Shown here: positions 39,698-48,551 of the stretch, piece by piece
Layout: every line of letters starts with the position of its first letter
Position numbering within the stretch: position 1 is the stretch's first letter
IMG/VR virus record: IMGVR_UViG_2627853771_000003
DNA from: a virus
Lineage: Duplodnaviria > Heunggongvirae > Uroviricota > Caudoviricetes
Strand: one strand, 5' to 3'
Length of the DNA stretch: 48,551 nt
Position numbers and translations under genes: made by a program
Notes under the pieces: model-generated
Database searches by the model: none
What the model was told of the DNA's origin: nothing
Seen by the model: only the letters and a program-made list of their open reading frames with translations

Positions 39698-42600
39698 ATG
39701 GGTAAAGGCAGCAGTAAGGGGCATACCCCGCGCGAAGCAAAGGACAACCTGAAGTCCACGCAGTTGCTGAGTGTGATCGATGCCATCAGCGAAGGGCCGG
39801 TTGAAGGTCAGGTGGATGGATTAAAAAGCGTGCTGCTGAACAGTACACCGGTGCTGGACAGTGAGGGGAATACCAACATCTCCGGTGTCACGGTGGTGTT
39901 CCGTGCCGGTGAGCAGGAGCAGACACCGCCGGAGGGGTTTGAATCCTCCGGCTCCGAGACGGTGCTGGGTACGGAAGTGAAATATGACACGCCGATCACC
40001 CGCACCATTACGTCTGCAAACATCGACCGTCTGCGCTTTACCTTCGGTGTGCAGGCACTGGTGGAAACCACCTCAAAGGGGGACCGGAATCCGTCGGAAG
40101 TTCGCCTGCTGGTTCAGATACAGCGTAATGGTGGCTGGGTGACGGAAAAAGACATCACCATTAAGGGCAAAACCACCTCGCAGTATCTGGCCTCGGTGGT
40201 GGTGGATAACCTGCCGCCGCGCCCGTTTAATATCCGGATGCGCAGGATGACGCCGGACAGCACCACAGACCAGCTGCAGAACAAAACGCTCTGGTCGTCA
40301 TACACCGAAATCATCGATGTGAAACAGTGCTACCCGAACACGGCACTGGTCGGCGTGCAGGTGGATTCGGAGCAGTTCGGCAGCCAGCAGGTGAGCCGTA
40401 ATTATCATCTTCGCGGGCGTATTCTGCAGGTGCCGTCGAATTATAACCCGCAGACGCGGCAATACAGCGGTATCTGGGACGGGACGTTTAAACCGGCATA
40501 CAGCAACAACATGGCCTGGTGTCTGTGGGATATGCTGACCCACCCGCGCTACGGCATGGGGAAACGTCTCGGTGCGGCGGATGTGGACAAATGGGCGCTG
40601 TATGTCATCGGCCAGAATTGTGACCAGTCGGTGCCGGACGGCTTTGGCGGTACGGAGCCGCGCATCACCTGTAACGCTTACCTGACCACACAACGTAAGG
40701 CGTGGGATGTGCTCAGTGATTTCTGCTCGGCGATGCGCTGTATGCCGGTATGGAACGGGCAGACGCTGACGTTCGTGCAGGACCGACCATCGGATAAGGT
40801 GTGGACCTATAACCGCAGTAATGTGGTGATGCCGGATGATGGCGCGCCGTTCCGCTACAGCTTCAGCGCCCTGAAGGACCGCCATAATGCCGTTGAGGTG
40901 AACTGGATTGACCCGGATAACGGCTGGGAGACGGCAACAGAGCTTGTGGAGGACTCGCAGGCCATTGCCCGTTACGGTCGTAACGTCACGAAGATGGATG
41001 CGTTTGGCTGTACCAGTCGGGGGCAGGCGCACCGCGCCGGGCTGTGGCTGATTAAAACAGAACTGCTGGAAACGCAGACCGTGGACTTCAGCGTGGGTGC
41101 CGAAGGGCTTCGCCATGTACCGGGCGATGTCATTGAAATCTGCGATGATGACTATGCCGGTATCAGCACCGGCGGGCGCGTGCTGGCGGTGAACAGCCAG
41201 ACCCGGACGCTGACGCTCGACCGTGAAATCACGCAGCCATCCTCCGGCACCACGCTGATAAGCCTGGTTGACGGAAGTGGCAATCCGGTCAGCGTGGAGG
41301 TCCAGTCCGTCACCGACGGCGTGAAGGTGAAAGTGAGCCGGGTTCCTGACGGCGTTGCCGAGTACAGCGTGTGGGGGCTGAAGCTGCCGACGCTGCGCCA
41401 GCGCCTGTTCCGCTGTGTGAGTATCCGTGAGAACGACGACGGTACGTATGCCATCACTGCAGTGCAGCATGTACCGGAGAAAGAAGCCATCGTGGATAAC
41501 GGGGCGCACTTTGACGGTAACCAGAGCGGCACGGTGAATGGTGTCACGCCGCCAGCAGTGCAGCATCTGACCGCCGAAGTCACCGCAGACAGCGGGGAAT
41601 ACCAGGTGCTGGCCCGCTGGGACACGCCGAAGGTGGTGAAGGGCGTGAGCTTCCTGCTTCGCCTGACCGTGGCAGCGGATGACGGCAGTGAGCGGCTGGT
41701 CAGCACGGCCCGGACGACGGAAACCACTTACCGCTTCACACAACTGGCTCTGGGGAACTACAGGCTGACAGTCCGGGCAGTAAATGCGTGGGGGCAGCAG
41801 GGCGATCCGGCGTCGGTATCGTTCCGGATTGCCGCACCGGCAGCGCCGTCGCGGATTGAGCTGACGCCGGGCTATTTTCAGATAACCGCCACGCCGCATC
41901 TTGCGGTTTATGATCCGACGGTACAGTTTGAGTTCTGGTTCTCGGAAAAGCGGATTGCGGATATCAGGCAGGTTGAAACCACAGCACGCTATCTTGGCAC
42001 GGCGCTGTACTGGATAGCCGCCAGTATCAATATCAGGCCGGGCCATAATTATTATTTTTACGTTCGCAGTGTGAACACCGTTGGCAAATCGGCATTCGTG
42101 GAGGCTGTTGGTCAGCCGAGTGATGACGCATCCGGCTATCTGGATTTTTTCAAAGGCGAGATAGGGAAAACCCATCTGGCTCAGGAGCTGTGGACGCAGA
42201 TTGATAACGGTCAGCTTGCGCCTGACCTGGCTGAAATCAGGACATCCATTACGGATGTCAGCAATGAAATCACACAGACCGTCAATAAGAAACTGGAAGA
42301 CCAGAGTGCAGCGATCCAGCAGATACAGAAGGTTCAGGTTGATACAAATAATAACCTGAACAGCATGTGGGCCGTGAAACTGCAGCAGATGCAGGACGGA
42401 CGCCTTTATATTGCGGGTATCGGTGCCGGTATTGAGAATACGTCAGCAGGAATGCAGAGTCAGGTGCTGCTGGCGGCAGACAGGATTGCGATGATTAATC
42501 CTGCGAATGGCAACACAAAGCCGATGTTTGTTGGTCAGGGTGATCAGATATTCATGAACGACGTGTTCCTGAAACGCCTGACGGCTCCCACCATTACCAG

Positions 42601-43177
42601 CGGCGGTAATCCTCCTGCATTTTCCCTTACACCGGACGGGCGACTGACGGCGAAAAATGCGGATATCAGTGGCAGTGTGAATGCGAACGCCGGGACGCTC
42701 AACAATGTCACGATAAATGAAAACTGTCGGGTTCTGGGAAAACTGTCTGCGAACCAGATTGAAGGCGATCTCGTTAAAACAGTGGGCAAAGCTTTCCCCC
42801 GGGACTCCCGTGCACCGGAGCGGTGGCCATCAGGGACCATTACCGTCAGGGTTTATGACGATCAGCCGTTTGACCGGCAGATTGTTATTCCCACGGTGGC
42901 GTTTCGTGGCGCTAAACATGAGCGGGAGAATAACGATATTTATTCGTCATGCCGCCTGATAGTGAAGAAAAACGGTGCTGAAATTTATAACCGTACCGCG
43001 CTGGATAATACGCTGGTTTATACAGGTGTTATTGATATGCCTGCTGGTCGCGGTCACATGACGCTGGAGTTTTCGGTATCAGCGTGGCTGGTAAATGACT
43101 GGTATCCCACAGCCAGTATCAGTGATTTGCTGGTTGTGGTGATGAAGAAATCCACAGCAGGTATCACGATTAGCTGA
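39698..43177 (+). CDS. J: tail tip / host-specificity protein J
   Basis: 1159 aa; SD GAGGAA; lambda gene order. Confidence 0.9.
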
Positions 43178-43245: not shown

Positions 43246-43845
43246 ATGCGTAAAGTTTGTGCAGCCATTTTGTCCGCAGCCATCTGTCTGGCCGTATCCG
43301 GTGCGCCTGCATGGGCGTCTGAGCAGCAGGCCACACTGAGCGCAGGGTATCTTCATGCCCGTACGAACGCTCCCGGCAGCGATAATCTGAACGGGATTAA
43401 CGTGAAATACCGTTATGAGTTTACGGACACGCTGGGGCTGATTACGTCATTCAGTTATGCCAACGCTGAAGATGAGCAAAAAACGCATTACAGCGATACC
43501 CGCTGGCATGAGGATTCCGTGCGTAACCGCTGGTTCAGCGTGATGGCGGGGCCGTCTGTGCGCGTGAATGAATGGTTCAGCGCGTATGCGATGGCGGGTG
43601 TGGCTTACAGCCGTGTGTCGACTTTCTCCGGGGATTATCTCCGCGTAACTGACAACAAGGGGAAAACGCACGATGTGCTGACCGGAAGTGATGACGGTCG
43701 CCACAGCAACACGTCTCTGGCGTGGGGGGCTGGCGTGCAGTTTAACCCGACCGAATCCGTGGCCATTGATGTCGCTTATGAAGGCTCCGGCAGTGGCGAC
43801 TGGCGCACTGACGGTTTCATCGTGGGTGTCGGTTATAAGTTCTGA
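43246..43845 (+). CDS. lom: Lom-like outer-membrane protein (Ail/PagC family)
   Basis: Signal peptide, C-terminal ...VGVGYKF beta-barrel terminus; SD GAGAGG; the position lom occupies in lambda. Confidence 0.85.
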   Translation: MRKVCAAILSAAICLAVSGAPAWASEQQATLSAGYLHARTNAPGSDNLNGINVKYRYEFTDTLGLITSFSYANAEDEQKTHYSDTRWHEDSVRNRWFSVMAGPSVRVNEWFSAYAMAGVAYSRVSTFSGDYLRVTDNKGKTHDVLTGSDDGRHSNTSLAWGAGVQFNPTESVAIDVAYEGSGSGDWRTDGFIVGVGYKF

Positions 43846-43871: not shown

Positions 43872-43899
43872 AGCCCGCCGGTTCAGGCGGGCTTTTTTG
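43872..43899 (+). terminator. rho-independent terminator after lom
   Basis: AGCCCGCC-GGTTCA-GGCGGGCT hairpin followed by TTTTTT. Confidence 0.65.
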
Positions 43900-43909
43900 T
43901 GGGGTGAAT

Positions 43910-46900
43910 ATGGCAGTAAAGATTTCAGGTGTACTGAAAGACGGTGCAGGTAAACCGGTACAGAACTGCACAATCCAGCTGAAAGCAAAACGTAACAGCA
44001 CCACGGTGGTGGCGAACACGGTGGCCTCAGAAAATCCGGATGAAGCCGGGCGTTACAGCATGGACGTTGAGTACGGTCAGTACAGCGTTATTCTGTTGGT
44101 GGAAGGCTTCCCGCCATCGCATGCCGGGACCATCACCGTGTATGAAGACTCACAACCGGGTACGCTGAATGATTTTCTCGGTGCCATGACGGAGGATGAT
44201 GTCCGTCCGGAGGCACTGCGCCGCTTTGAACTGATGGTGGAAGAGGTGGCGCGTAACGCGTCCGCAGTGGCGCAGAACACAGCAGCCGCGAAGAAGTCAG
44301 CCAGCGATGCCAGCACATCAGCCCGTGAGGCGGCAACCCATGCGACTGATGCTGCAGGCTCAGCACGTGCAGCCAGCACGTCAGCCGGACAGGCCGCTTC
44401 GTCGGCTCAGTCAGCGTCTTCCAGCGCAGGAACGGCATCAACAAAGGCTACTGAAGCATCAAAAAGTGCTGCCGCTGCAGAGTCTTCAAAAAGCGCGGCA
44501 GCCACCAGTGCCGGTGCAGCGAAAACGTCAGAAACGAATGCCGCAGCATCACAAAAATCTGCGGCCACTTCTGCATCCACCGCGACCACGAAAGCGTCAG
44601 AAGCTGCCACCTCAGCCCGGGATGCGTCGGCTTCAAAAGTGGCGGCAAAATCATCAGAAACGAGCGCAGCCTCGAGCGCCGGCAGTGCAGCTTCCTCGGC
44701 AACGGCGGCAGGAAATTCCGCGAAGGCCGCAAAAACGTCTGAGACGAATGCGGATAACAGCGCACAGGCGGCAGCAGACTCACAAACTGCATCGGCAAAT
44801 TCCGCGACAGCAGCCAAAAAATCAGAAACCAACGCGAAAAATAGTGAGTCAGCAGCAAAGGTCAGCGAAACCAACGCTAAAGCGTCAGAGAACAAGGCGA
44901 AAGAATATCTCGACAAGGTCGGGGGACTCGTCAGCCCGATGACGCAATACGATTGGCCTGTTGTTACTGCTAGTGAGTCTCTTTACATCAAGATCGCGAA
45001 ACTTTCCGATCCTGGAACCAGCAGAAGTCATGTAACGCTAATGGTTACTAACGCTGGTAACTACGGCTCCCCTTACGGAAACATTGACTTTATCGAGATC
45101 TCGGCGCGCGGTCTGCCTTCTTTGCTTAGTGCGGATAATGTTTCTCGTCATCTGAGTATACGCCGCTTAGGGTCAACCGGGCTGACCGATAACAACCAGA
45201 TGCGTTACGGCCTGGTTAAAGGTGACGGCTTTATTGAGGTTTGGGCATTCCAGGGTGCGTTTATTAACGACGCAAAGGTTGCGGTGCTGGCGCAGACAAC
45301 ACTAAACACAGAATTATACATTCCAGACGGATTTGTTAAGCAAACCCCCGCGCCTTCTGGATATATTGAAGGCAACGTTGTAAGGATTTACGACCAGTTA
45401 AACAAGCCGACTAAAGCAGATTTGGGTCTTTCTAATGCTATGCTTACAGGCGCTTTCGGTCTTGGCGGTAGCGGGATATCAACAAACGGCAAGATGAGCG
45501 ATGTAGAGATCTTAAAAGCTCTGCGTGACAAAGGTGGTCATTTCTGGCGCGGTGATAAGCCGACCGGAAGCACGGCGACCATTTATAGCCACGGTTCTGG
45601 TATATTCTCGCGGTGCGGCGATACGTGGTCAGCGATCAATATCGACTACTCAACCGCGAAGATTAAGATCTATGCCGGCAACGATGCCCGGCTTAACAAC
45701 GGGACTTTTAGCGTCAATGAGCTATACGGCTCGGCAAACAAGCCGTCGAAATCGGATGTTGGACTTGGCAACGTAACGAACGATGCGCAGGTAAAAAAAA
45801 CCGGCGATACAATGACCGGTGACTTGACAATCAAAAAAGGTACACCGTCAGTCTTCCTGCGGGCAGACAGTGGAGTCACCGCTTTGCGGTTTTATACTGG
45901 CGATAACACAGAGCGCGGCATAATCTATGCTGGTCCTAACACTGATTCGCTTGGCGAAGTTCGCATCAGGGCAAAGACAGCAGGGGGGACATCAGGAGGG
46001 GATCTTGTTGTTCGTCACGACGGGAGGGTTGAAGTCCGTGATCTCACAGTAGCGTATAAAATTAAAAGCAGAACGATTGAGATTGCAAATACCGACACTG
46101 ACTCATCGGCAACTACGCTAAGCATCTATGGAGTACAGCACACGCCGTTGGTTTTAACGCGTTCTGGTTCTTCTGAAAATGTGTCCATTGGGTTTAAGTT
46201 AGACAACATGAACCCAAAGTATCTTGGAATTGATACTAATGGGGATCTGGCTTTTGGTGAGAGTCCTGATCAGAAACAAAACAGCAAATTGATCACGCAA
46301 GCGAAACTCGACAAGGGATTAACGATTGGTGGTCAACTGGCTTTCAAAGGTACGACAGCGTTTTCAGCCGTTGCTACGTTCAGTGCCGGGATAGCAGGAG
46401 CCATCGAGCCGGAAAACATTGACGGCCAGACGGTTAATCTTAACAACCTGACCATCATCAAGTCAGATGCCGGGGCAGTTAAATACTATATTTGTCCATC
46501 CTCTGCAGGTGGTGCAAATATCACCAACAAGCCTGACGGCGTAACAGGTAACTTTTTGCTCCGTGTTGAATCGACTCGTAAGGTTAGGGATTCAGATTAT
46601 GCGAACATGCAAACGCTGATTAACAGCGACACAAAACGTATATACGTTCGCTTTGTTGTTAATGGAAACTGGACAGCGTGGAGTCAGGTTGTTGTTTCCG
46701 GATGGAATCAGGATGTAACCGTAAGGTCGTTAACCTCGACGACTCCATCAAAATTAGGTGGCGGGCGGATTGATGTGCTTGGAAGTACGTCAGATTATGG
46801 CAGCATGAATTGTACCGTTCGTGGTGTTGATAGCACTGGAACCAATTCGGCGTGGTCGGTAGGCACATCAGAAAGCACAGGCAAAATGTTGTTCCTGAAA

Positions 46901-47689
46901 AACCACAGAAGCAGCGCTCAAGTGCTGTTAAATGGCGATGATGGAGCGGTTCAACTACTAAGTGGCACTGTTAACGGTGCTACAGCGCAGGCGCTAACCA
47001 TCAACAAAGATGAGGTTAACTCAACTGCCGATTTAGTAATTAGAAAACAAACAGGGACTGGCAATCGTTTTGCTTTACTTAATTCAGGTAATTCAGAACT
47101 ACCAGTTAGTATCAGGGTGTGGGGTTCCAGTACTCGACAAAACGTTTTTGAGGTTGGCACGTCTGCTGCGTATCTGTTTTATGCGCAAAAAACAACAGAC
47201 GGGCAAAACCTTACTGTAAACGGAAGTGTTAACTGCACCACACTGAATCAGTCATCAGACCGCAGACTGAAAGAAAATATCGAGATTATCGATAACGCGA
47301 CTGACGCAATCCGCAAAATTAATGGATACACGTACACGCTCAAGGAGAATGGGGCACATTGCGCCGGGGTTATAGCACAGGAAGTTGAAGAGGCCATCCC
47401 GGAGGCCGTTGGTTCATTCATCCATTACGGTGAAGAGTTGCAAGGCCCGACCGTTGACGGCAACGAGCTACGCGAAGAAACGCGCTATCTTAATGTTGAC
47501 TACGCCGCCGTGACGGGTTTACTTGTTCAGGTCGCCCGTGAAACAGATGATCGCGTTACCGCGCTGGAAGAGGAAAACACAACGTTACGTCAAAATCTGG
47601 CAACAGCAGGCACCCGGATCAGCACTCTGGAAAATCAGGTAAGCGAACTGGTTGCACTTGTCCGGCAGTTAACAGGAAGCGAACATTGA
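43910..47689 (+). CDS. stf: side tail fibre protein with Ala/Ser/Thr-rich repeat region and C-terminal intramolecular chaperone (peptidase S74-like) domain
   Basis: N-terminus MAVKISGVLKDGAGKPVQNCTIQLKAKRN (lambda Stf-like). Low-complexity A/S/T repeats at about 44250-44900. C-terminal 144 aa (47255-47686) begin SDRRLKENIEII, the conserved autoproteolytic motif. Confidence 0.85.
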   Translation: MAVKISGVLKDGAGKPVQNCTIQLKAKRNSTTVVANTVASENPDEAGRYSMDVEYGQYSVILLVEGFPPSHAGTITVYEDSQPGTLNDFLGAMTEDDVRPEALRRFELMVEEVARNASAVAQNTAAAKKSASDASTSAREAATHATDAAGSARAASTSAGQAASSAQSASSSAGTASTKATEASKSAAAAESSKSAAATSAGAAKTSETNAAASQKSAATSASTATTKASEAATSARDASASKVAAKSSETSAASSAGSAASSATAAGNSAKAAKTSETNADNSAQAAADSQTASANSATAAKKSETNAKNSESAAKVSETNAKASENKAKEYLDKVGGLVSPMTQYDWPVVTASESLYIKIAKLSDPGTSRSHVTLMVTNAGNYGSPYGNIDFIEISARGLPSLLSADNVSRHLSIRRLGSTGLTDNNQMRYGLVKGDGFIEVWAFQGAFINDAKVAVLAQTTLNTELYIPDGFVKQTPAPSGYIEGNVVRIYDQLNKPTKADLGLSNAMLTGAFGLGGSGISTNGKMSDVEILKALRDKGGHFWRGDKPTGSTATIYSHGSGIFSRCGDTWSAINIDYSTAKIKIYAGNDARLNNGTFSVNELYGSANKPSKSDVGLGNVTNDAQVKKTGDTMTGDLTIKKGTPSVFLRADSGVTALRFYTGDNTERGIIYAGPNTDSLGEVRIRAKTAGGTSGGDLVVRHDGRVEVRDLTVAYKIKSRTIEIANTDTDSSATTLSIYGVQHTPLVLTRSGSSENVSIGFKLDNMNPKYLGIDTNGDLAFGESPDQKQNSKLITQAKLDKGLTIGGQLAFKGTTAFSAVATFSAGIAGAIEPENIDGQTVNLNNLTIIKSDAGAVKYYICPSSAGGANITNKPDGVTGNFLLRVESTRKVRDSDYANMQTLINSDTKRIYVRFVVNGNWTAWSQVVVSGWNQDVTVRSLTSTTPSKLGGGRIDVLGSTSDYGSMNCTVRGVDSTGTNSAWSVGTSESTGKMLFLKNHRSSAQVLLNGDDGAVQLLSGTVNGATAQALTINKDEVNSTADLVIRKQTGTGNRFALLNSGNSELPVSIRVWGSSTRQNVFEVGTSAAYLFYAQKTTDGQNLTVNGSVNCTTLNQSSDRRLKENIEIIDNATDAIRKINGYTYTLKENGAHCAGVIAQEVEEAIPEAVGSFIHYGEELQGPTVDGNELREETRYLNVDYAAVTGLLVQVARETDDRVTALEEENTTLRQNLATAGTRISTLENQVSELVALVRQLTGSEH

Positions 47690-47863
47690 TATCCTTCAAG
47701 CTCTGAAGGAGGCTGTTCCCGGTACGTTCAGACTGTTGTTGAGCTGGAGATCGCAACGGAGGAAGAAAACTCGTTGTTGGAAGCCTGGAAGAAGTATCGG
47801 GTGTTGCTGAACCGTGTTGATACGTCAACTGCACAGGATATTGAATGGCCAGCACTGCCGTAG
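47690..47863 (+). pseudogene. tail fibre assembly protein (Tfa) 3' remnant, in frame directly after the stf stop
   Basis: No start codon; translation ...[41 protein letters not shown] matches the conserved C-terminus of Tfa chaperones. Confidence 0.5.
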
Positions 47864-47960: not shown

Positions 47961-48551
47961 TTATATGTCAGGTGTCTGAAGTTTTGCTTTGGCTCTTAAA
48001 ATGGTTTGCCGCGAGGTTTTGAATTCCCGGGCAATGGCACTTATACTTACACCTGACTTAATTCGTTCGAATACCACCTGTTTCTGTTCTTCATTTAACA
48101 CAGGTGGTCGACCAAAACGTTTCCCTGCGCCGCGGGCTCTTACTATCCCGGAATGAGTGCGTTCAAGTAAAAGGTCTCGTTCAAATTCAGCGACTGCTGA
48201 AATTACGTGCATCATCATTTTTCCTGTTGGACTGGTCAGGTCAATGCCCCCCAATGCTAAGCAATGCACTCTGATACCTGTTTCGGTCAGTTGTTCCACT
48301 GTTTTCCTGATATCCATTGCATTACAACCAAGGCGATCCAGTTTTGTCACAATCAATTGATCACCACATTTCAGGCGAGCAAGCAACCGGTTAAAACCAG
48401 GACGCTCACTGGTTGCTGCTGAGCCGCTAATGTGTTCTTCGATTATTTGCTGAGGTTTGATTTTAAAACCTGCACTTTCGATTTCCCGGCGTTGATTTTC
48501 GGTGGTCTGATCCAGCGTTGATATCCGACAGTAAGCAAAAATTCGAGACAT
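47961..48551 (-). CDS. pin: serine-recombinase DNA invertase (Pin/Hin/Gin family)
   Basis: Complete 196-aa ORF (ATG is the last 3 nt of the window); N-terminal [15 protein letters not shown] with catalytic Ser, C-terminal HTH. Confidence 0.85.

Follow-up and report, generated by a model that had tools for sequence, protein, structure and literature searches.

A probable coiled-coil rod with an alanine/serine core in the side tail fibre gene of a lambdoid virus, and the open reading frames that overlap it

The closest described counterpart of the protein segment considered here is found in gpStf, the side tail fibre protein of Ur-lambda, in which residues 1-91 have been delineated as a collar domain, 92-101 as a flexible linker and 102-393 as a proximal coiled coil, with a hinge after it (Yu et al., Sci Adv 2025, PMC12617516; collar structures PDB 9e7m/9mgh). 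Based on cryo-electron microscopy, cryo-electron tomography (cryo-ET) and AlphaFold3 modelling, the proximal coiled coil has been described as trimeric, the bundle rotating 'as a rigid body' (PMC12617516). Here, we investigated the related gene stf of the virus IMGVR_UViG_2627853771_000003, whose 48,551 nt form the window to which all coordinates refer, and more particularly codons 114-330 of this gene (44249-44899), a stretch dominated by alanine, serine and threonine. With high confidence, we interpret this stretch as the proximal coiled-coil rod of a lambda-type side fibre, and the open reading frames (ORFs) which overlap it as by-products of its composition.

Alanine-rich cores are also found in Lpp-56, the Braun lipoprotein of Escherichia coli, an alanine-zipper parallel three-stranded coiled coil in which small alanine residues occupy the core and which mixes hydrophobic and alanine layers over its 56 residues. 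In contrast, in the stretch under study, which has no sequence relationship with Lpp-56, alanine and serine fill the core through 31 consecutive heptads. Residues 172-269 of T7 gp17 presumably form a trimeric coiled coil as well. Weak sequence similarity was detected with this part of gp17 (PDB 7boz, 7ey7; E=0.007) and with the N-terminal regions of Klebsiella phage depolymerases (7vz3, 7vyv and 7lzj; E=0.0085, 0.015 and 0.12). In these proteins too, an Ala/Ser/Asn-rich segment lies between a tail-attachment domain and a distal receptor-binding part, although the rods are much shorter, the attachment domains are different and no homology is found outside the heptads. Common descent need not account for the similarity, which may be due to composition and periodicity instead.

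With lambda, the homology is direct. The locus has the organization of a lambdoid tail cluster, its J-lom-stf gene order being identical to that of lambda (NC_001416; Table 1), and its lom-stf DNA is 92-99% identical to 80 lambdoid loci from IMG/VR. Residues 1-134 of Stf match Pfam family PF08400 (phage_tail_N, prophage tail fibre N-terminal; E=1.1e-71), the N-terminus matches residues 1-94 of the 'Tail fiber protein' in PDB 9e7m/9mgh (E=3.9e-52 for 9e7m) and the collar region is 92.6% identical to residues 1-94 of lambda Stf, as expected for the N-terminal collar of the Stf/PF08400 family. Residues 1116-1167 match Peptidase_S74, an intramolecular chaperone (E=3e-16), so that the protein reads, from N to C terminus, as collar domain, linker, coiled-coil rod, distal receptor-binding part and Peptidase_S74 chaperone. 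Because of the gene order and the N-domain matches, the 1259-residue ORF at 43910-47689 is assigned as a lambda-type side tail fibre gene, an assignment resting on Pfam, on the PDB 9e7m match and on the J-lom-stf order.

Table 1. Coordinates of the features discussed in the text (positions in the window).
Feature	Position	Strand	Basis or remark
J-like ORF	39698-43177	+	ORF list; order as in lambda
lom-like ORF	43246-43845	+	ORF list; order as in lambda
stf, side tail fibre gene, 1259 aa	43910-47689	+	ATG at 43910, stop TGA at 47687-47689
Collar domain, aa 1-91	43910-44182	+	would dock the fibre at the tail tube/tip junction (role from PMC12617516)
Short linker from collar to rod, aa 92-101	44183-44212	+	boundaries carried over from Ur-lambda gpStf (PMC12617516)
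Two N-terminal cap heptads, PEALRRF ELMVEEV	44207-44248	+	rod register, ordinary hydrophobic core residues
31 uninterrupted Ala/Ser-core heptads, 217 aa, ~32 nm	44249-44899	+	heptad layout, autocorrelation, AlphaFold2, conservation
C-terminal cap heptad KEYLDKV (Tyr/Leu/Val at d, e, a), then Gly-Gly at the end of the helix	44900-44920	+	heptad layout
Heptad 24, KTSETNA, main mosaic junction	44732-44752	+	homology lost after 44751
Heptad 30, KVSETNA, plus 5 nt, second junction	44858-44883	+	shared with the 'LNYRNQA' tip class; homology resumes at 46721
Frame +1 ORF, 211 aa, Arg/Gln/Pro-rich, not a gene	44307-44942	+	shuffle p=0.82; no Pfam/PHROG match
Wobble-aligned antisense ORF, 169 aa, judged a by-product	44407-44916	-	shuffle p=0.69; counterpart of lambda orf206b/phrog_560
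Second antisense ORF, 136 aa, not a gene	44448-44858	-	shuffle p ~0.06-0.07; no family match
Antisense ORF, 103 aa	44133-44444	-	upstream continuation of the antisense frames above
Antisense ORF, 100 aa	44077-44379	-	upstream continuation of the antisense frames above
tfa 3' end remnant (tail fibre assembly), right flank of the tip cassette	47727-47863	+	match to the lambda Tfa C-terminus

The homology with lambda extends from the collar through the linker and into the first 24 heptads (83% identity at the protein level, 86% at the DNA level; 83% over aa 100-281 of Stf), and the Ala/Ser heptad pattern is the same. The two fibres differ further along: lambda has 33 heptads against 31 here, the last seven heptads are unrelated (33% identity), and the distal tip carries a self-cleaving Peptidase_S74 chaperone instead of the gp37-like, Tfa-requiring tip of lambda, only a remnant of tfa being left. 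On each feature tested, the stretch belongs with the Stf rods of the lambda family and is of a kind already known.

Evidence for a coiled coil comes from the periodicity of the protein. Ala, Ser and Thr account for 70% of codons 114-330 (79, 49 and 24 residues, respectively, of 217). Autocorrelation of these codons gave a residue identity of 0.44 at a lag of seven, compared with 0.20 in shuffled sequences (z=10); an excess was also present at each multiple of seven up to 56, and at no other lag. The stretch resolves, free of any indel, into 31 consecutive heptads of the form (A/K)(T/S)-S-(A/E)-x-x-A, serine occupying the third position in 26 of the 31 and alanine the seventh position in 29. 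These alanine and serine residues alternate with spacings of three and four, as the a and d residues of coiled coils do. The flanking heptads PEALRRF, ELMVEEV and KEYLDKV share the register of the rod, with hydrophobic residues at the matching positions, and the PEALRRF/ELMVEEV pair varies little or not at all among the relatives shown. A preliminary description, made from the letters of the window, had placed Ala/Ser/Thr-rich repeats inside stf at 44250-44900; both the composition and, almost to the nucleotide, the limits were correct. The term low-complexity, in contrast, does not suit a strict heptad pattern in which the a, d and e positions are conserved.

Heptads were compared in 78 related proteins from IMG/VR loci and, for the wider family, counted in 80 representatives of 50%-identity clusters. 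They were followed by phase tracking, as a heuristic finder of the heptad end failed on three loci (L054, L007 and L065) and mis-cut two others (L036 and L066). Heptads 1-24 occur in related loci in 57 distinct protein versions, over which the mean entropy was 0.05 at d, 0.02 at e and 0.04 at a, compared with 0.28 at b and 0.25 at f, and among 175 distinct heptads position a is alanine in 93% and position d serine in 73%. Near-invariant d, e and a positions combined with variable b and f positions are the signature of a helical bundle core. The heptad phase is unbroken in 76 of the 78 related proteins; the periodicity is continuous, and its a and d positions are conserved.

Structure prediction is consistent with this pattern. 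AlphaFold2 (AF2) was run on aa 92-351 as a single chain and from a single sequence, which gives the result moderate weight; it returned helices at aa 98-219 and 223-341 (model residues 7-128 and 132-250) with a mean predicted local distance difference test score of 80.7, i.e., alpha-helix throughout the rod. At 0.148 nm per residue, a helix spanning aa 100-337 would measure ~35 nm. An intrinsically disordered, flexible Ala/Ser/Thr low-complexity linker could have the same overall composition, and typical hydrophobic coiled-coil core residues are indeed absent inside the 31 heptads. However, such a linker should accept insertions and deletions whatever their length, whereas the register is maintained in 76 of 78 relatives; neither the strict seven-residue phase held over 217 residues without any indel, nor a conservation that tracks the a/d/e pattern, nor the predicted helix, nor the rigid trimeric bundle formed by the homologous lambda segment (PMC12617516) would be expected from it. 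We therefore regard disorder as very unlikely. The preliminary description had called the stretch a flexible shaft; for the same reasons this wording is not retained, flexibility being better placed in the linker upstream of the rod.

In the mechanism that we propose for the coiled-coil rod, three Stf chains would wind into a parallel alpha-helical coiled coil. Alanine at a and serine at d would build a slim core, with Ala/Glu at e beside it, through 31 heptads without a register break, and ordinary hydrophobic heptads would cap this core at both ends. The rod would act as a stiff spacer keeping the distal receptor-binding part away from the tail, while the flexibility of the fibre would come from the 10-residue linker (aa 92-101) joining it to the collar domain, which by homology with gpStf is likely the flexible element. 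As the a/d/e pattern alone would have to be kept, the rod could shorten, lengthen or be re-joined by whole heptads.

Regarding the length of the rod, close relatives fall into classes of 31, 32, 33 and 48 heptads, the last being the commonest and lambda belonging to the class of 33. In all nine other measured loci carrying the tip of the window (including L001-L005, L008, L045 and L065), which are 87-99% DNA-identical to it, exactly 31 heptads were found. Among the 80 representatives of the wider family, whose N-domains are 50-98% identical, 9 lack the Ala/Ser run and the others have one of ~4-48 heptads; some relatives without the run, such as P0180, have an Ala/Gln/Glu/Arg-rich sequence in its place. 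The class of locus seen in the window is carried by 606 E. coli genomes. Heptad number thus changes by complete heptads, in step with the distal module. Database proteins matching the N-terminal 120 residues could not be used for counting, being mostly 'partial' entries 110-210 aa long. Of the 120 best matches to the collar domain (43910-44269), nearly all are of this kind and end inside the heptads, and it is likely that short-read assemblies break where two to seven prophage copies share heptads 1-24.

At the DNA level, the rod is far less repetitive than at the protein level, where the periodicity becomes visible. Tandem Repeats Finder (TRF; minimum score 30) reported no array over 44249-44899, just one trifling 26-nt repeat. 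The 21-nt units have a mean pairwise identity of 43%, compared with 36.5% out of register, and a repeat search of the region returned only copies of 15-38 nt with 63-93% identity, mostly spaced by multiples of 21. To speak of repetitive DNA, as had been done, is consequently an overstatement. These properties bear on a second alternative, namely that the rod is a contingency locus, made of tandem DNA repeats prone to slippage and shifting rapidly in copy number between strains. The variation in heptad number among relatives (31, 32, 33 and 48, and 4-48 across the family) would fit such a locus. Yet slippage-grade copies are lacking, with no TRF array and units only 43% identical; the count is the same in all nine same-tip loci measured; and the changes in length coincide either with an abrupt loss of homology, as at recombination joints, or with single events between SETNA heptads (L011 and L021). 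Slippage thus appears extremely unlikely. The expectation that repeat number would vary between strains is borne out insofar as relatives differ, and does not hold within a tip class, where the number is constant and no sign of slippage is seen: compared across homologous fibres, repeat counts form discrete, in-register classes tied to the fibre tip.

How the rod is joined to different tips is indicated by the positions at which homology ends. In blastn comparisons of the window with about 60 of the 80 IMG/VR loci, and with lambda, an identity of 86-97%, and of 92-97% for most relatives, ends exactly at 44751, directly after which the sequences are unrelated. Eight loci match up to 44883 and then again from 46721, and in one locus homology ends at 44667, the end of the heptad KSSETSA. 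The region is present in 4,604 of 5,426 complete E. coli genomes (85%), with 8,642 matches in all, a median of two copies and up to seven, and in these genomes the same break is dominant, most matches stopping at ~44745-44751 (query 497-503). Phage records also show it as the dominant break (match to query 1-839/842). Heptads of the K-x-SETNA type, roughly 6 of the 31, form the best-conserved DNA repeat family of the rod (26 nt, 77-85% identity, at 44516, 44642, 44726 and 44810); locus L011 resembles a large in-frame deletion between two SETNA heptads and L021 lacks exactly seven residues.

On the other side of the tip, the segment 47727-47850 (125 nt), which encodes the last ~40 residues of Tfa, is conserved whatever the tip, with 74-94% identity in loci carrying other tips. 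In E. coli 2 HS-C, the Prokaryotic Genome Annotation Pipeline (PGAP) describes the tfa remnant as a 'tail fiber assembly protein, incomplete, missing N-terminus'. This remnant was left when a Tfa-independent tip with an S74 chaperone replaced the original cassette. Directly after the stf stop codon, 47690-47863 continues in the same frame for 57 codons to a stop, ending in the lambda Tfa C-terminus; this shared frame of stf and the remnant is probably a coincidence.

In the exchange that we propose, recombination at the recurring K-x-SETNA heptads would swap distal cassettes, with the conserved tfa 3' end as the right boundary, and would yield fibres with 31, 32, 33 or 48 heptads. As three independent homology breaks end at or just after such heptads and L011 joins two of them, it is tempting to go further and to view the K-x-SETNA heptads as built-in, register-preserving recombination linkers and the rod as an evolved 'splice rail'. 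We put this idea forward tentatively and consider it rather doubtful.

Several observations weigh against the interpretation of the stretch as a rigid rod within an exchangeable fibre. In the AF2 model, the chain folds back on itself at aa 220-222, which we read as an artefact of predicting a monomer. The lambda rod is itself an AlphaFold3 model fitted in cryo-ET density rather than an atomic-resolution structure (PMC12617516). The parallel homotrimer and its rigid-body behaviour are transferred from Ur-lambda through 83% identity, folding having been predicted here for a single chain, and since an Ala/Ser core is weakly stabilising, we infer rather than observe its stiffness over 35 nm. The recombination at SETNA heptads would likewise be deduced from three junction positions (44667, 44751 and 44883). 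Finally, the register is broken in two relatives, L036 (+9 aa) and L066 (+4 aa); either such breaks are tolerated or these assemblies are wrong. The first has a 9-aa duplication, AAESSKSAA, at ~aa 189-203, and the second a 4-aa insertion at ~aa 219-227, the size of a coiled-coil stutter.

The preliminary description had also noted long ORFs in other frames and on the opposite strand, judged them not to be genes and ascribed them to repetitive, GC-rich DNA. The ORFs are present (211 aa on the coding strand; 169, 136, 103 and 100 aa on the other), with stop-free runs of 235 codons in frame +1 and of 191 codons in the wobble-aligned antisense frame. Their cause lies indeed in composition, in a form other than the one suggested. 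The rod region is only moderately GC-rich (58.5%, compared with 49.9% in the whole window), and GC content as such does not drive the open frames; nor does repetitiveness. The driver is a scarcity of T: at codon position 2 of the rod, C reaches 64% and T just 1% (three Val codons), and T makes up 11.7% of the coding strand. Since codons for Ala (GCN), Ser (TCN/AGY) and Thr (ACN) place hardly any T at position 2 and very little on the coding strand as a whole, few stops arise in frame +1 or in two of the antisense frames, which results in long, meaningless ORFs over the rod. A stop in frame +1 requires T at position 2 of an stf codon, whereas in the wobble-aligned antisense frame stops are possible only at Gln, His or Tyr codons following T or C; the region contains seven such codons, and the only stop actually formed is 44407-44409 (sense GCT|CAG). 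Mononucleotide shuffles of the region already give longest open runs of 131+-32 codons, and GC-richness was accordingly replaced by T-poverty as the explanation.

Synonymous-codon shuffles, which keep the Stf protein, allowed the longest open run to be compared frame by frame. The observed lengths were 235 codons against 239+-11 in frame +1 (p=0.82), 184 against 199+-51 in antisense frame -1 (p=0.69), 137 against 91+-29 in antisense frame -2 (p=0.07) and 95 against 64+-22 in frame +2 (p=0.10), hence none of the four frames is longer than the Stf protein predicts. The relatives comprise 73 distinct DNA versions, and even between near-identical ones the lengths of the +1 and -2 runs differ widely: within the 31-heptad class, the +1 run spans 130-231 codons and the -2 run 137 or 225, while the open run of the second antisense ORF ranges from 103 to 366 codons among relatives. 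Stops are gained and lost among relatives that are 95-99% identical, the +1 ORF being interrupted in L001, L008 and L065, and variable sites are distributed 48/52/116 over stf codon positions 1/2/3. Frames +1 and -2 are thus not kept open among relatives. Pfam scans of five alternative-frame ORFs gave no match, PHROG scans of three returned nothing besides phrog_560 for the antisense ORF 44407-44916, and PGAP calls only the fibre gene over the region in the E. coli records listed, including a 99.9% identical copy. The shuffled lengths, the coming and going of stops, the variation at codon position 3 and the absence of a PGAP call all support the judgement that these ORFs are not genes.

The wobble-aligned antisense ORF deserves separate consideration, as it could be a genuine overlapping gene. 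It matches phrog_560, a family of 'unknown function' (E=3e-55), and the lambda reference record annotates orf206b (NP_040603.1) at the same position and strand, inside orf-401; here, the stop at 44407-44409 shortens the ORF to 169 aa. Its frame is open for long runs in all relatives examined, although this openness is expected from the Stf protein alone. Selection on the antisense product was considered as well, since at sense four-fold sites of the rod, transversions that change the antisense codon are depleted (3/22 versus 17/37, p=0.012), being rarer where the antisense codon is two-fold. This candidate was rejected, the control genes giving an equal or stronger signal: in J, the same comparison gave 18/147 versus 56/181 (p=6e-5), and 9/68 versus 25/70 (p=0.003) in the parts outside its own, differently phased antisense ORF, with a depletion odds ratio of 0.27-0.31, and the L-like gene shows depletion too. 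A depletion shared by J and the L-like gene is an effect of neighbouring bases, i.e., of sequence context, rather than of selection. Literature searches on the translation of orf206b, including lambda ribosome profiling, returned only a genotype mention and a CRISPR interference (CRISPRi) non-essentiality entry. The latter, the sole functional datum found, is that knock-down of orf206b leaves lambda plaque formation unaffected (PMC10695390). With, in addition, no Pfam family, no PGAP call and no promoter-like minus-strand site inside or just downstream of the ORF, we consider the existence of a gene here scarcely credible, and treat this ORF, like the others, as a by-product of the rod composition.

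A much longer antisense ORF than any overlapping stf lies inside J (40298-42175, minus strand, 625 aa), where the codon-aligned frame is open for 714 codons. Synonymous shuffles gave 404+-111 codons (p=0.016), and the open run measures from 352 to >600 codons in 47 related loci. It looks like a consequence of the avoidance of TTA, CTA and TCA codons rather than a gene.

Between lom and stf, a strong terminator-like hairpin (43872-43893; 8-bp stem with 7 G-C pairs, followed by a T run) is located 17 nt upstream of the stf start codon, which implies that stf expression would need read-through or antitermination from the late operon. The near-identical copy mentioned above matches the repeat stretch over 44249-44941 at 99.9% identity and is annotated in the complete genome of E. 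coli 2 HS-C (locus L082, NZ_CP038180.1 2277936-2281715). PGAP describes stf in that genome as an incomplete pseudogene plus a separate 'tail fiber domain-containing protein', unlike the window, in which stf is one intact frame of 1259 aa. At the right-hand side, a 196-aa ORF on the minus strand (47961-48551) reaches the end of the window. In E. coli 2 HS-C, the gene at the corresponding position relative to stf is pinQ, a recombinase-family gene (DNA invertase), followed by ydfK and ynfT, an order that suggests a Qin-type prophage neighbourhood for that locus.

As the lambda Stf rod is well studied, these data bring little new biology in themselves. Their use lies first in annotation: the antisense ORF is a composition artefact which has entered the reference annotation (lambda orf206b) and phrog_560, and it is to be treated as spurious. 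In addition, the presence of two to seven prophage copies per genome sharing heptads 1-24 may explain many of the 'partial' Stf proteins in databases. For the engineering of chimeric lambda side fibres, a field in which a Nature 2024 paper on chimeric lambda STFs gives no rod fusion points in its main text, the exact junctions at 44751/2 and 44883, at which the register is preserved, offer landmarks, together with the tfa 3' end as a right arm, and the same junctions are useful in parsing the mosaics of prophage tail fibres. Should the 'splice rail' idea prove true, any distal cassette could be joined to the tail-attachment module without disturbing the register of the coiled coil; the rod would then be more than a spacer, and the conserved tfa 3' end would be the other homology arm.

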